64,000 bases of DNA from Eledone cirrhosa (Eukaryota), in NCBI GenBank assembly GCA_964016885.1, contig OZ024742.1, positions 159,278,001-159,342,000 of the forward strand. Reading direction: 5' to 3'. The position numbers and the translations under genes are program-made. The stretch's first letter is position 1. Every line of letters starts with the position of its first letter. The notes below the pieces were generated by a model. The model made no database searches and had not been told where the DNA came from. It was given only the letters and a program-made list of their open reading frames with translations. Shown in pieces: positions 4,649 through 62,630 of this stretch.

Positions 4649-5113
4649 ACTTGTTCCTATTACCCACTCTACTACCTTAAGTATTGAGTACCTTGGTGCG
4701 TTATGGTCCATCTGGTTCCTTACCACATTTCCTTCGTTATATATATATATATATATGAAATAGATATAGTTTTTTACAATATAATAATTAGAAACATAGA
4801 GAAGTTAAACGCAGCTCAAAATACAGTTATTTATTATAATAAGCAGTACAAAAGACTTCTTTGTAAGAATTTTCCCCAAAAAGCATGTATACAGAATCCT
4901 ATTGTGCGAAAATTAATAATTACACATGAAGCAAATTATTAATTAAAATAGACACCAAATACGTTTTTACATGAAATGGTGATTTACGAACGTACCATAT
5001 AACCCTTGTTAAATCATCCCAGGAAGGGGTGAAACGTTCGTAAATCAGCATTTAATGTAAAAATGTATAGGTATATATATATATATATATATATATATAT
5101 ATATATATATATA

Positions 5114-5845
5114 TAAGAGAGTATTGAAGTTTGCTTGAAGCTTTGTGGAATAATAAGGTAAATTTCTTTAAGTCGTTTGGAAGCCTCGACAATGCAAATG
5201 GGTAAATCTCCGGGTAACAAGATCGGGTGGTGGAGAGAGAGATGTAAGTGGGTGTACGTTGAGATGCGTGGCGTGTATAAGACGTGCAGAGGAATGAAGG
5301 AAAGAGCATAAAGGATAAAATAAAAATAACACGAGAGAGAGTTACCTTGGGAGAGATTTAATTGTCCCTATATATTTCGGATTCACATCCATCAACTGGG
5401 GTTTTTTTCCGGGGTGGGGGAAAGGTTGTCTGTCGGAAAGGTGCGAAACGCGTCCTCCGCTGTTCGTTGTTTTGATATTCAAAACAACGAACAGTTGGTG
5501 TACGTTGGTGTACGTTGAGATGCGTGGCGTATTCAAAACAACGAACAGCGGAGGACGCGTTTCGCACCTTTCCGACAGACAACCTTTCCCCCACCCCGGA
5601 AAAAAACCCCAGTTGATGGATGTGAATCCGAAATATATAGGGACAATTAAATCTCTCCCAAGGTAACTCTCTCTCGTGTCATTTTTATTTTATCCTTTAT
5701 GCTCTTTCCTTCATTCCTCTACACGACTTATACACGCCACGCATCTCAACGTACACCCACTTACATCTCTCTCTCCACCACCGGATCTTGTTACCCGGAG
5801 ATTTACCCATTTGCATTGTCGAGGCTTCCAAACGACTTAAAGAAA
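5114..5845. mobile_element. Palindromic (TA)n-inserted element, probable non-autonomous PLE derivative
   Basis: Arms ~5162-5472 and ~5537-5845 are inverted repeats; one arm has an extra tail; TA tracts on both sides. Confidence 0.7.
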
Positions 5846-5905
5846 TATATATATATATATATATATATATATATATATATATATATATATATATATATAT
5901 ATATA

Positions 5906-6098
5906 TAGGAACAAATAAGACCCCGACGGCTGAGCTCAAGCCGTTTCGACGGCTAATTCAGTCCAGAATTAGCCGTCGAAACGGCTTGAGCTCAGCCGTC
6001 GGGGACTTACTTGTTCCTATTACTCACTCTACTACCCTACGTATTGAGTACTTTGGTGCGTTATGGTCCACCTGGTTCCTTACCACATTTCCTTCGTT
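5906..6098 (+). mobile_element. Mini inverted PLE terminal-repeat insertion (family of 2066-4738)
   Basis: ~54 bp inverted arm, then the 3' half of the HHR and a tail, inside (TA)n. Confidence 0.85.
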
Positions 6099-6127
6099 AT
6101 ATATATATATATATATATATATGTATT

Positions 6128-6692
6128 CTAGGGCGGGTAAAATTCCCGAGATCCATGGAGGAGTTCTCTCCAGCGGTCTCTGTCCCTCATTATCGCTGCC
6201 ATGTCCTGCATCTCCAATAGACCAGTGTCTGTCCTTAGGGCATCAACATACGTTAACCTTGATCTTCCTCTTCCAATCTGTCCATGTAGGGGCTCCCACG
6301 GGAGCACTGAGTGCAATGTCAACTCTGGATGTCGGTGAGCATGTCCAGCTAACCTCAGTCTCTTCTGTGTCACTTTTGAGCTGACTTTTGGGATGCTCCC
6401 ATACAGCTCTGAGTTTTTGATCCTCAGTGTATACTGATTAATGTTCAGAGCCATCCTCAGCATTCTCGTGTAGCACCCATCCACCATCTGAGTGAGTTTC
6501 TTGGTCAGTGTCCAAGTCTCAGACCCGTACAGCAGCACAGACTCCACTACAGCAATGAAGAGGCGGATTTTCAGGTCTTTGCGAAGGTCCAACTTTAATA
6601 CCGATCTCAAGCTGTGGCACGCCGCCCATGCTTTGCTCTTCCTCTCAACCACATCATCTTCCGTATTCCCAATCTCTGCTCCCAAATACAGG
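6128..6692 (-). pseudogene. RTE-clade LINE ORF 3' fragment
   Basis: ESVLLYGSETWTLT...RMLRMAL...RLRLAGHAHRH...GRSRLTY...DRDRWR is the typical RTE RT thumb/C-terminal region. Confidence 0.85.
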
Positions 6693-59120: not shown

Positions 59121-59140
59121 TATATATATATATATATATA

Positions 59141-59697
59141 ATACATTATAAAGAAATAAGAAACAATAGATATAATTAATAAGATATACCACACCCAAAT
59201 TCCTTATTAGTCCTCGACTAGGTAGTTTCGTGGCATATTATGCAAAAACACTACATCATCACAGTGATACAGTATTTTTGTGAGGTTTGCCGACTTATCA
59301 AGAGGATACCTCATTAAAAGTTTCAAAACACATTCGTAGGACGCGAAATAGAATACCGAAAGGCGGAGGGGGAGTCAATCACGTGATATAGCGGTCAAGA
59401 AACAGAGCTAAGCCTCTTACAAACAAGAAAAAATACCGCAAAAGGCGGCGGGGTATTTATATCAAAGCCATAGAAGAGATGGCTAGGATGGTGAGAAGTA
59501 TAAGTAATGATAGCTTTCCAGCAGTCACTACACTTCAATGGTTAGTCTACCATAGGGAGTTATAAACAATATAAAGAAATACACAGATACATGCGAACAT
59601 ATACATATACATGAATATATCCATATGTTTTGGCATAATATGCCACGAAACTACGTAGTCGAGGACTAATTAAGACATTTTTCTTTCTTTATAATGT
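59141..59697. mobile_element. Inverted PLE-type insertion, separate family
   Basis: Arms 59141-59245 and 59625-59697 share ttagtcctcgacta.gtagtttcgtggcatattatgc. Confidence 0.7.
59211..59306 (-). ncRNA. Type I hammerhead with U3-A8 core
   Basis: UCCUC-UUGAUAA-GU(C)GGCA...UGCCAC-GAAA-CUACCUAG-UC-GAGGA; the other arm has the perfect palindrome CUACGUAG. Confidence 0.78.
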
Positions 59698-62067
59698 ACT
59701 AGCAGTAAAGCCCGGCGTTGCTCGGGGTCGCTCAGTAGCTGTGTTAAAGTTACAATGTTAAGTTTCTTTCTTGGCTTAAAACTGTAGTGTCTACTGTGCA
59801 GACTTGCATGTGGTGTTTTTGATTAATATTCCCTCAACCAACAATATGCCTTATGAAGTTAAGAAAACATAACGATAACCCGAATGTTATAACAAAAGAG
59901 GATGCTGGGGATAGAAACTGCACTGGTTATTTATTAACAAAGATCGAAAATGTAAACACTGCAACGCAGAGAAAAACATTAGCGTAACCAAATTATCAGT
60001 TATGTCTGTCTGCACGCCTATATCACCTCTCTGCACGACTGTCTGTCTGCACGCCTATATCACCTCTCTGCACGACTGTCTGTCTGCACGCCTATATCAC
60101 CTCTCTGCACGACTGTCTGTCTGCACGCCTAACGACGAAATATTTGCTTGTTTTACGTAGTCTTTAAATAGACTTGTTTTCAAGTAAAAATATTGTTTTA
60201 AAATGCTTTTAAATGGAAATGAAGCAAAACGGAAGCTTAGTGTTCGAACTGATGAATTTTGCAGGTCAATATTTTGCTGGCTCGACAACTGTTAAAGCCA
60301 GCGTAATGTTTTACGTAAGACGCTCAATGTAAACAGAACAAAGGGAAATAACTGATAACTTACGCTCAAAAATCGATACATTATATTCGATTTCGTCACA
60401 TAAGGTGGGTCAATTTGAAATTTTTTTTTTCCGATGTCTTCGCTAGGGCTGAATGTACAAGTATAGCAATTTCGGTGCAATTCCGTGAGAGATTCTAAGA
60501 GGAGATGTGTGCCAAAAATCGATAGAGAGACAGACAACCACAGTTTTATATATATAGACTAGCAGTAAAGCCCGGCGTTGCTCGGGGTCGCTCAGTAGCT
60601 GTGTTAAAGTTACAATGTTAAGTTTCTTTTTTGGCCTAAAAACTGTAGTGTCTAATGTGCAGACTTGCATGTGGTGTTTTTGATTAATATTCCCTCAACC
60701 AACAATAAGCCTTATGAAGTTAAGAAAACATAACGATAACCCGAATGTTATAACAAAAGAGGATGCTGGGGATAGAAACTGCACTGGTTATTTATTAACA
60801 AAGATCGAAAATGTAAACACTGCAACGCAGAGAAAAACATTAGCGTAACCAAATTATCAGTTATGTCTGTCTGCACGCCTATATCACCTCTCTGCACGAC
60901 TGTCTGTCTGCACGCCTATATCACCTCTCTGCACGACTGTCTGTCTGCACGCCTATATCACCTCTCTGCACGACTGTCTGTCTGCACGCCTATATCACCT
61001 CTCTGCACGACTGTCTGTCTGCACGCGTATATCACCTCTCTGCACGACTGTCTGTTTGCACGCCTAACGAAATTTACAGATACATATATTTTAAATAAAC
61101 TTATATAATTTTTGCTTTTTTTTACGAAATATTTGCTTGTTTTACGTAGTCTTTAAATAGACTTGTTTTCAAGTAAAAATATTGTTTTAAAAGGCTTTTA
61201 AATGGAAATGAAGCAAAACGGAAGCTTAGTGTTCGAACTGATGAAGCTGTGTTAAAGTTACAATGTTAAGTTTCTTTCTTGGCTTAAAAACTGTAGTGTC
61301 TACTGTGCAGACTTGCATGTGGTGTTTTTGATTAATATTCCCTCAACCAACAATATGCCTTATGAAGTTAAGAAAACATAACGATAACCCGAATGTTATA
61401 ACAAAAGAGGATGCTGGGGATAGAAACTGCACTGGTTATTTATTAACAAAGATCGAAAATGTAAACATTGCAACGCAGAGAAAAATATTAGCGTAACCAA
61501 ATTATCAGTTATGTCTGTCTGCACGCCTATATCACCTCTCTGCACGACTGTCTGTCTGCACGCCTATATCACCTCTCTGCACGACTGTCTGTCTGCACGC
61601 CTATATCACCTCTCTGCACGACTGTCTGTCTGCACGCCTAACGACGAAATATTTGCTTGTTTTACGTAGTCTTTAAATAGACTTGTTTTCAAGTAAAAAT
61701 ATTGTTTTAAAATGCTTTTAAATGGAAATGAAGCAAAACGGAAGCTTAGTGTTCGAACTGATGAATTTTGCAGGTCAATATTTTGCTGGCTCGACAACTG
61801 TTCGTGTATTGTAATTTTTTACGTAAGATGCTCAATGTAAACAGAACAAAGGGAAATAACTGATCACTTACGCTCAAAAATCGATACATTATATTCGATT
61901 TCGTCACATAGGGTGGGTGAATTTGAAATTTTTTTTTTCCGATGTCTTCGCTAGGGCTCAATGTACAAGTATAGCAATTTCGGTGCAATTCCGTGAGAGA
62001 TTCTAAGAGGAGATGTGTGCCGAAAATCGATAGACAGACAGAAAACCACAGTTTTATATATATAGAT
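59698..62067 (+). mobile_element. Tandem array of three Helentron/HINE(DINE-1)-like non-autonomous units
   Basis: Units start ACTAGCAGTAAAGCCCGGCGTTGCTCGGG (59698, 60558) and end cagac..ccacagttttatatatataga. Each has an internal 37-bp minisatellite; the third unit is fused at ~61245. Confidence 0.7.
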
Positions 62068-62329
62068 TATATAGCTCTGATACTGAATCAATCTAATCCA
62101 TTCGGATTATTTTGTCCCAGTTATTCATAGAGCAACATCGGTGAGGTTGGCACCATAAATTCAGGGATATATGTGGATATATTCATGTATATGTATGTGT
62201 CCGCATGTATCTATGTATTTCTTTATATTGTATATATATATATATATATATATATATATATATATATATATATATATATATATATATATATATATATATA
62301 TACATATATATATGTATATATATAGAAAT

Positions 62330-62630
62330 TATAGAAATTACATGAATCAAAGTTCTGTTTAAACCATTTATTCGCTTACAATTGTTTCTTCCAAACCTCG
62401 GTTTGGAAGAAACAATTGTAAGCGAATAAATGGTTTAAACAGAACTTTGATTCATGTAATTTCTATATAACTGCTCTGTAGAACAACTGATGTTATTACA
62501 TTGAGCTATTTATCTTACTGGTAATAAGGTAGTAATAAATTACTGTCTTTCACTATTTAGGGTTTAAAATATATATAACTATAAAAGGTTTTAGTATATA
62601 CATAACCATAAATAGTATCCTTAATACTAT
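62330..62630 (+). mobile_element. Mini inverted PLE-type insertion (perfect ~68-bp hairpin plus tail)
   Basis: 62330-62398 and 62400-62467 are inverted; contains the HHR 3' half GAAA-CAATTG-TA followed by AATAAA. Confidence 0.7.

Follow-up and report, generated by a model that had tools for sequence, protein, structure and literature searches.

Penelope-like elements (PLEs) of the Hydra clade carry one open reading frame (ORF) that contains RW[K/R], DKT, CxCx5C linker, GIY-YIG, CxxC and CxH motifs, insert into (TA)n targets, bear a hammerhead ribozyme in their pseudo-long terminal repeats (pLTRs), and leave inverted, 5'-truncated copies that are tailed on one side (PMC8557442). In the Poseidon element PAc, an AT-rich target is cut on both strands, a dimer is predicted, and two reverse transcription start sites delimit the tail, close to the 5' end of the unit that is transcribed (PMC11167929). 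Head-to-head palindromes at PLE junctions have been attributed to self-priming on an antisense template, in an account that also notes an initiator (Inr)-like motif in the pLTR (PMC3846280). Family A, a PLE family with several copies in the window analysed here (64,000 nucleotides (nt) of Eledone cirrhosa, contig OZ024742.1, positions 159,278,001 to 159,342,000 of the forward strand), resembles the Hydra clade in all of the features listed above and Poseidon in its two start sites.

Published work already covers pLTRs that are inverted, truncated and tailed on one side, as well as U3-A8 hammerheads and internal start sites of reverse transcription. A fixed truncation wall and an extra G, on the other hand, are not described in the accessible portions of the Hydra clade report (PMC8557442), and neither a cap-marked truncation wall nor strong-stop cDNA in PLEs was found in the literature searched, which covered few subscription journals. 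The origin of inverted, tailed and partial-tandem PLE insertions and the role of the hammerhead are treated as open questions in the field (PMC8557442, PMC11167929, PMC3846280). The short hairpin copies of family A stop in stem II of the hammerhead, probably because the capped RNA begins there and the reverse transcriptase (RT) runs off the 5' end of its template.

Family A and its hammerhead

Eight stretches of the window singled out in an earlier note all exist and adjoin TA repeats. The half-hammerhead claimed there for each of them is real, and its elements, from the end of stem II through GAAA and stem III to the UH site, are those of a type I hammerhead's 3' half. Positions below are relative to the hammerhead, 0 being the G of the GAAA core, and the predicted family A cut falls after +22. 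Self-comparison and genome searches sort the eight loci into four unrelated PLE families, and the reading of the elements as PLE ends is right: family A comprises the loci at 5906, 42022, 49981 and 58834, an older variant at 8680 and a long pair at 2064-4740, and families B, D and E are represented by the loci at 4962, 59625 and 62330, respectively.

Across the 3.0-Gb genome, family A has 41,315 exact matches to a tail word and 35,626 to a 3'-half word that covers part of the subfamilies only. A full-length copy at locus L087 is organised as pLTR-ORF-pLTR, with a unit of 3118 nt, slightly above the <3 kb given for the Hydra clade, and a 719-aa ORF containing RWR at 37 (RWR, not RWK), DKT at 117, YRDD at 348, CNCPDRSIC at 572, a GIY-YIG-like motif at 591, CNLC at 670 and CKH at 698, the order of an RT followed by a C-terminal GIY-YIG endonuclease (EN). 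Pfam gave no match at E 0.01 for this ORF or for three window fragments, and so the Hydra-clade RT and EN assignment of L087 rests on the motifs. By eye, against the alignment available in the published supplement, the L087 protein is similar to but distinct from Hydra-1_Obim. By filter, 94 of 100 tail ends enter TA repeats, with six exceptions. With its single ORF, motifs and (TA)n target, family A is, as judged from sequence, an EN+ PLE of the Hydra clade.

The tail of L087 is present only in the 5' copy, within a predicted 231-nt 5' untranslated region (UTR) that precedes the ATG. This predicted 5' UTR (L087:5849-6080) contains a single upstream ATG, located in the tail, which opens an upstream ORF of 13 codons. 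A second, ATG-less frame with a hydrophobic stretch is open through the ribozyme and tail in the window copies at 4371-4763, 5641-6384 and 41935-42321. The 3' UTR of the L087 unit (near 8532) lacks 430-470 nt that are present at -452 in other long copies (L216, L217 and L225), which may reflect a deletion or an intron.

An Rfam scan of the window returned no hammerhead up to E=1, only microsatellite and hairpin noise, and the identity of the ribozyme therefore rests on long relatives that retain the 5' half and on their hammerhead fold. In long family A copies, the 5' half reads YUGANAA, where position 7 is G, U, A or C, and some copies have a mismatched C3 with A8. The free fold equals the core-constrained hammerhead fold in three of five long copies and lies within 0.3 and 2.8 kcal/mol of it in the other two, and the G10.1-C11.1 pair forms in L087. 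By core, a U3-A8 covariant of CUGANGA...GAAA...UH with position 7 free, and by three predicted helices, the long copies are type I hammerheads. The U3-A8 variant is known from Schistosoma PLEs (PMC4209133). Family A differs from the Hydra clade as described in the available text in combining a U3-A8 core with a stem II of ~55 nt and in having a tail of ~80 nt rather than 30-40 nt (PMC8557442); Hydra-1_Obim, unlike family A, is listed with a canonical core and a short stem II. The U3-A8 core is common to the three otherwise unrelated families A, B and D (59016, 4962 and 59250), and family E has a short stem II and a core that, in the majority of 30 copies, reads CCGAAGA (U4 to C).

A truncation wall inside stem II

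The family A sample consisted of the first 100 tail-word matches on one contig, among which two insertions give two anchors each; arms were aligned to 21 real long copies, with TA repeats masked for parsing. Alignment ends overshoot by up to ~7 nt where arms share microhomology, and an apparent class of ends at -25 is an artefact of a permissive walk. Of the 100 tail arms, 17 end at +32..+80, 13 at +17..+31, 8 at -8..+16 and 53 at -29..-9, none ends at -299..-30, and 9 continue for at least 300 nt. The end rate per base is 0.080 at -29..-9, 0.004-0.011 downstream, and 0 in 2430 nt at risk upstream (Fisher p=5e-40). Breakpoint clustering in family A is far above chance, and the uniform spread of breakpoints that the earlier note had named as refuting its proposal is not what this family shows; families B, D and E show no stem II wall.

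The second arm of each insertion meets the same boundary. An adjacent inverted arm is present in 81 of the 100 insertions, with its 3' end at +40..+42 in 65 of the 81; of 79 tail-less arms, 61 end within -29..-9. In 24 cases the tail arm is short and ends at 0 or later, and in 16 of these its partner nonetheless ends at the wall. Solo arms without a palindrome end there as well. Family A arms have two fixed 3' ends, the pLTR end near +41 and the tail end near +122; the wall spans about -12 to -22, with its real upstream limit near -22 on inspection and its mode at -17/-18. Across the genome, matches to the 5' half of the hammerhead number 5,581, at most 16% of the number for the 3' half, and contigs of two public runs of unrecorded kind exhibit a 10- to 14-fold step in depth in the bin that contains -18. 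A splice acceptor at the AG near -17 was rejected as the source of the wall, given that the arms there share no upstream exon and their ends are not piled at a single splice site.

The earlier note attributed the breaks to stalling or folding back at the ribozyme structure. Stalling of the RT on the folded ribozyme, or on a protein bound to its long stem II, followed by joining of the stalled cDNAs, would account for the smearing of the wall over ~10 nt and for its position, in predicted folds, on the 3' strand of the hairpin in upper stem II. That hairpin, however, is weak (-3.2 kcal/mol) and varies by subfamily, and stems I and III and lower stem II are crossed before it is reached; none of nine arms ends over the next 270 nt, although the other strand of the hairpin lies there; and family D has a far stronger long stem II yet no wall. 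A stall would also not predict a G at a single base, described below, and is considered decidedly unlikely.

Judged against the Inr consensus, the native sequence at the wall is Inr-like, with YY-A-GT at -18 and, in some subfamilies, also TC-A-TT at -22. An older subfamily with a different stem II retains TT-A-GT at -18 in both of its long copies, and its short arms mostly end at ~-18 to -12 (16 arms, by eye). Solo arms that abut (TA)n and have a base other than T at -19 comprise 55 with C, 37 with G and 8 with A at this position (100 of 105 rows, counted by eye). G is absent from -19 in all 29 long copies and is half as common as A in the flanks (G 149 : A 296), and the G excess at -19 is therefore real (p=2e-11). 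Plain TA stands at the joint of 13 G loci inspected, two of which represent one tandem duplication, and the palindromes show a G:A ratio of 1197:325. An untemplated G marks the reverse-transcribed cap in L1 and SVA (PMC4859970), and transcription of Penelope starts in the pLTR, from a promoter that is internal and lacks a TATA box (PMC2377424; PMC8557442). Solo arms of family A show the excess of untemplated G expected of a capped RNA polymerase II start, which is predicted at -18. Since the tail of L087 lies only in the 5' copy and inside the 5' UTR, a tail-primed cDNA made from such an RNA must end at the RNA 5' end.

The end at -18 could be real and still not derive from full-length mRNA, if short copies were transcribed from themselves in the manner of short interspersed nuclear elements or if an RNA were cut by a nuclease and recapped. 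The 41,315 tail matches far outnumber ORF copies, with a ~300-fold drop in depth after the tail in one public run, and the internal position of Penelope promoters (PMC2377424) would suit self-transcription. Against this, there is no single master sequence, nearly all junctions differ, subfamily variants are common to short and long copies, and no processing signal is evident, and such a source is improbable.

A smaller accumulation of ends lies at the ribozyme cut. Ends at +22..+24 account for 5 of the 100 sampled arms, and a separate count by eye drew on the first 100 of 423 rows whose ends fall at +14..+27, which represent 52 distinct loci: 19 at +23, 7 at +24, 8 at +25, 8 at +26/27 and 10 at +14..+22; the pattern used favours ends near its anchor, and some of the +23 to +25 cases share GG with a partner stub. 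Plain TA adjoins 26 of these loci, of which 8 have +23 as their first base and none has +21 or +22, and the extra G is present in 1 of 19 cases at +23, as expected of an uncapped cut end. This suggests that ribozyme-cut RNA sometimes serves as template and hints at ribozyme cleavage in vivo. The contention that breaks occur at the folded ribozyme rather than at the cleavage site was consequently too strong, as +23 is the first base after the predicted cut. The minor peak of genomic ends at the cut site also sets family A apart from Poseidon as described in the available text (PMC11167929).

Several observations weigh against a start site at the wall. The wall is smeared, most arms being 1-8 nt short of -18 and a minority 1-4 nt beyond it, and an explanation by RNA 5' ends therefore needs trimming, chance microhomology or a second start. 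It overlaps the 3' strand of the weak hairpin, and so its position alone does not discriminate against a stall. The sample is the first 100 matches on a single contig, and the runs that display the depth step, whose contigs give no information on an RNA start, may derive from the assembly's own sample. The G's of the palindromes may stem from templated fill-ins (CTG, CTGG) and carry less weight than the solo count, and C at -19 (55 of 100) is commoner than G, although it can be templated or come from TATACA flanks. Finally, other families have similar hammerheads and no wall, which makes the account family-specific.

Joints between arms and the route of copying

The joints of the palindromes bear on whether the arms were copied from a single founder, from one another, or separately. 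Both cores could be parsed in 44 of the 100 loci, which contain 39 distinct centres and ~20 subfamily strings, and the junctions are diverse, with microhomology and fill-ins. Amplification of one master mini-palindrome, comparable to a miniature inverted-repeat transposable element (MITE), post-insertion collapse of longer palindromes, or an assembly artefact could explain why 5 of the 39 centres are seen twice and why a CAG/CTG centre recurs often. Four of the five recurring centres, however, differ in polarity or subfamily, solo arms end at the same wall, and public-run contigs show the same step, which leaves this group of explanations extremely improbable. The single shared junction of a MITE-like master is absent, and the palindromes arose independently; descent from one master copy, which the earlier note had named as an outcome that would overturn it, does not apply to family A. 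The centres often hold fill-ins for which the arms served as template, or else stretches of A as long as 11 nt. Such centres resemble the products of polymerase-theta end joining.

A single cDNA that folds back at stem II and copies itself, in line with the self-priming proposed for PLE junction palindromes on an antisense template (PMC3846280), would produce arms of near-identical sequence, as is found (median of 1 mismatch in 28 nt within a locus compared with 6 between loci), and the family E copy at 62330 is indeed centred on its native hairpin. Arm identity is explained equally well by one shared RNA template. Of 79 pairs, 24 have the tail arm extending further, 33 have the tail-less arm doing so, and 22 are level; in the 33 where the tail-less arm is the longer, it is not a copy folded back from a tail-primed cDNA. 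The native stem II loop is kept in none of 50 listed palindromes and, in the loci, in 1 of 19; the end of the mirrored arm lies at a second, fixed site, and solo arms have the same wall. Fold-back on a sense template is largely refuted for family A, and self-priming as a whole is very unlikely. Arm asymmetry and loss of the native loop favour two independent cDNAs over self-priming as set out in the available text of that model (PMC3846280), which addresses the same head-to-head palindromes. The mechanism advanced in the earlier note, by stall or fold-back at the ribozyme, is probably wrong: a stall explains neither the non-templated G nor why so weak a hairpin would halt most cDNAs once stronger helices had been crossed, and the arm lengths and missing loops speak against fold-back.

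In the proposed route, the enzyme would nick a (TA)n site on both strands, and a cDNA would be primed from each DNA end, one per start site. Where the sites in the 5' UTR are used, the cDNAs would be ~60 or ~140 nt long and would end at a start cluster that is Inr-like and lacks a TATA box, predicted at A-18 and perhaps also A-22, and the cap would sometimes be copied as G. Both cDNA ends would then lose a few bases to trimming before host end joining unites them head to head, and a minority of cDNAs would be templated on ribozyme-cut RNA that begins at +23. The half-ribozyme would be a by-product, and, since the start would fall between the two halves of the core, the RNA 5' end would be unable to cut itself in cis. 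Long tail-bearing copies that pass the wall may come from tandem read-through RNA, a circle or strand transfer. The mirrored-arm ends at +40..+42 match the in vitro RT start sites of Poseidon as given in the available text, which fits priming at two sites (PMC11167929).

This route has parallels in two better-known systems. As in L1 twin priming, both target ends would prime on one RNA, microhomology and small indels mark the joint, and an extra G marks the copied cap (PMC4859970, in the portion available). Family A is unlike L1 in that the same 60 nt are copied into each arm, which yields a true palindrome, and in that the RNA start would be reached after <150 nt. The two segments of an L1 twin-priming product are adjacent, non-overlapping parts of the RNA. 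In elements with long terminal repeats (LTRs), the minus-strand strong-stop DNA is a short cDNA that is primed near the RNA 5' end and runs off the cap; the short cDNAs of family A would differ in being primed by nicked target DNA rather than a tRNA, in being made twice per insertion, and in being integrated as they are.

A closer parallel with retroviruses, in which PLEs would make strong-stop cDNA and -18 to +22 would be an R-like repeat present at both RNA ends, is unlikely. The promoter would set the 5' edge of this repeat and the hammerhead its 3' edge, long and partial-tandem copies would represent short cDNAs that had jumped to the 3' repeat, and the mini-hairpins, in their tens of thousands, would be failed jumps. 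Chimeras of upstream and downstream subfamily markers, expected from intermolecular strand transfer, were not seen by eye in 29 long copies.

Window loci, other families and significance

The window copies of the four families are listed in the table below. Each of the eight arms has only the 3' half of the hammerhead, as had been claimed, but the claim does not extend to the partners of the short arms at 58834 and 59625, which hold the whole ribozyme. Mirroring, described as usual, is found at four of the eight loci (5906, 42022, 62330 and partly 4962), and the arms at 49981 and 8680 are solo. Most breaks are inside stem II as stated, with the exception of the 58834 arm (0) and one 4962 arm (+3). 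The copies at 5.9 kb and 42 kb do break within a few nt of each other (-18/-12 and -14/-17), though with opposite polarity. The long insertion at 2064..4740 contains a rearranged GIY-YIG fragment and provides native sequence across the wall.

Table. Arms of Penelope-like elements in the window, with extents relative to the GAAA core (0)
Feature	Coordinates	Strand	Extent and remarks
Family A, tail-less arm, 5906 locus	5905..5959	-	-12..+42; ends at pLTR end beside (TA)n
Family A, tail arm, 5906 locus	5960..6100	+	From Inr-like A(-18) at 5960, or as far as -22 counting microhomology; core 5978; order: stem III, cut site, pLTR end, ~80-nt tail, (TA)n
Family A, tail-less arm, 42022 locus	42022..42081	-	-17..+42
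Family A, tail arm, 42022 locus	42081..42217	+	-14..+122; core 42095
Family A, solo tail-less arm	49978..50030	+	-13..about +40; between (GA)n and (TA)n; not mirrored
Family A, tail arm, 58834 locus	58712..58834	-	0..+122; broken at GAAA core, not in stem II
Family A, long tail-less partner of 58834 arm	58835..59121	+	Complete U3-A8 hammerhead, core 59079; short junction filler
Family A, older subfamily, solo tail arm	8684..8820	+	From -17; degenerate core; not mirrored
Family A, long head-to-head insertion	2064..4740		Whole hammerhead on both arms: cores 2106 (-), 4618 (+)
Family B, tail arm	4856..4993	-	Broken at +3 (stem III start)
Family B, tail-less arm	5017..5070	+	From -15, 5' base of short stem II; filler separates arms
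Family D, long arm	59135..59619	-	-388..+94; complete U3-A8 long-stem-II hammerhead
Family D, short arm	59626..59697	+	From -21
Family E, tail-less arm	62330..62407	-	-19..+57
Family E, tail arm	62390..62629	+	-19..+219

A stem II wall as a general property of PLEs is ruled out by families B, D and E. Of 30 family E arms, 1 ends in stem II and 27 continue for 133 nt or more beyond the core; in family B, 1 of 12 ends in stem II, namely the window copy itself; anchors for both families were placed at the core, so that ends further downstream fall outside the view. In family D, 8 of 45 arms end in stem II, scattered over 40 nt, and several loci are segmental duplicates. The window copies of families D and B appear to be ordinary PLE truncations. 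At the 62330 locus, the native stem II hairpin forms the centre of a perfect palindrome. This copy is an exception within family E and appears to be a one-off joined through that hairpin; it may represent either a true fold-back or a join through its own hairpin.

Family D (59135-59697; L284-L295) forms retrozyme-like tandem monomers of ~590 nt with a U3-A8, long-stem-II hammerhead and may qualify as a non-LTR retrozyme, a kind of element built of non-coding tandem monomers that each hold a whole hammerhead, in contrast to family A, whose short copies have a coding parent and are head-to-head halves. Two of 30 family D arms begin exactly at their own cut site, and four more begin in stem III.

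Further repeats occur in the window. A 680-nt palindrome with a 57-nt centre at 5159-5849, with a relative at 172-411, has an inward GAAAC-GCGTC hammerhead-like half, opposite to the usual head-to-head arrangement, and another PLE insertion at 52699-56727 has 434-nt inverted arms around frameshifted Hydra-like RT and GIY-YIG fragments (53301-55193). On ORF motifs, 13619-33000 is a cluster of non-LTR retrotransposons, in which two L1/Tx1-like copies face opposite directions and three more copies have an RT and carry (ATT)n tails. Inverted repeats between microsatellites, assigned to no family, are present at 8836-9204, 57357-57414 and 40301-43022.

Through its >40,000 copies, family A gives a base-resolution record of both RT start sites and of two likely 5' ends of its RNA, one of them capped and the other cut by the ribozyme. 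A capped start as the cause of the wall predicts an exact transcription start inside the ribozyme, which provides a direct test of how PLEs are copied. Short perfect hairpins may also arise from the family in large numbers, likely some tens of thousands across this genome when extrapolated from the sample. If the strong-stop interpretation were true, it would give the PLE hammerhead a function and explain the pseudo-LTRs.

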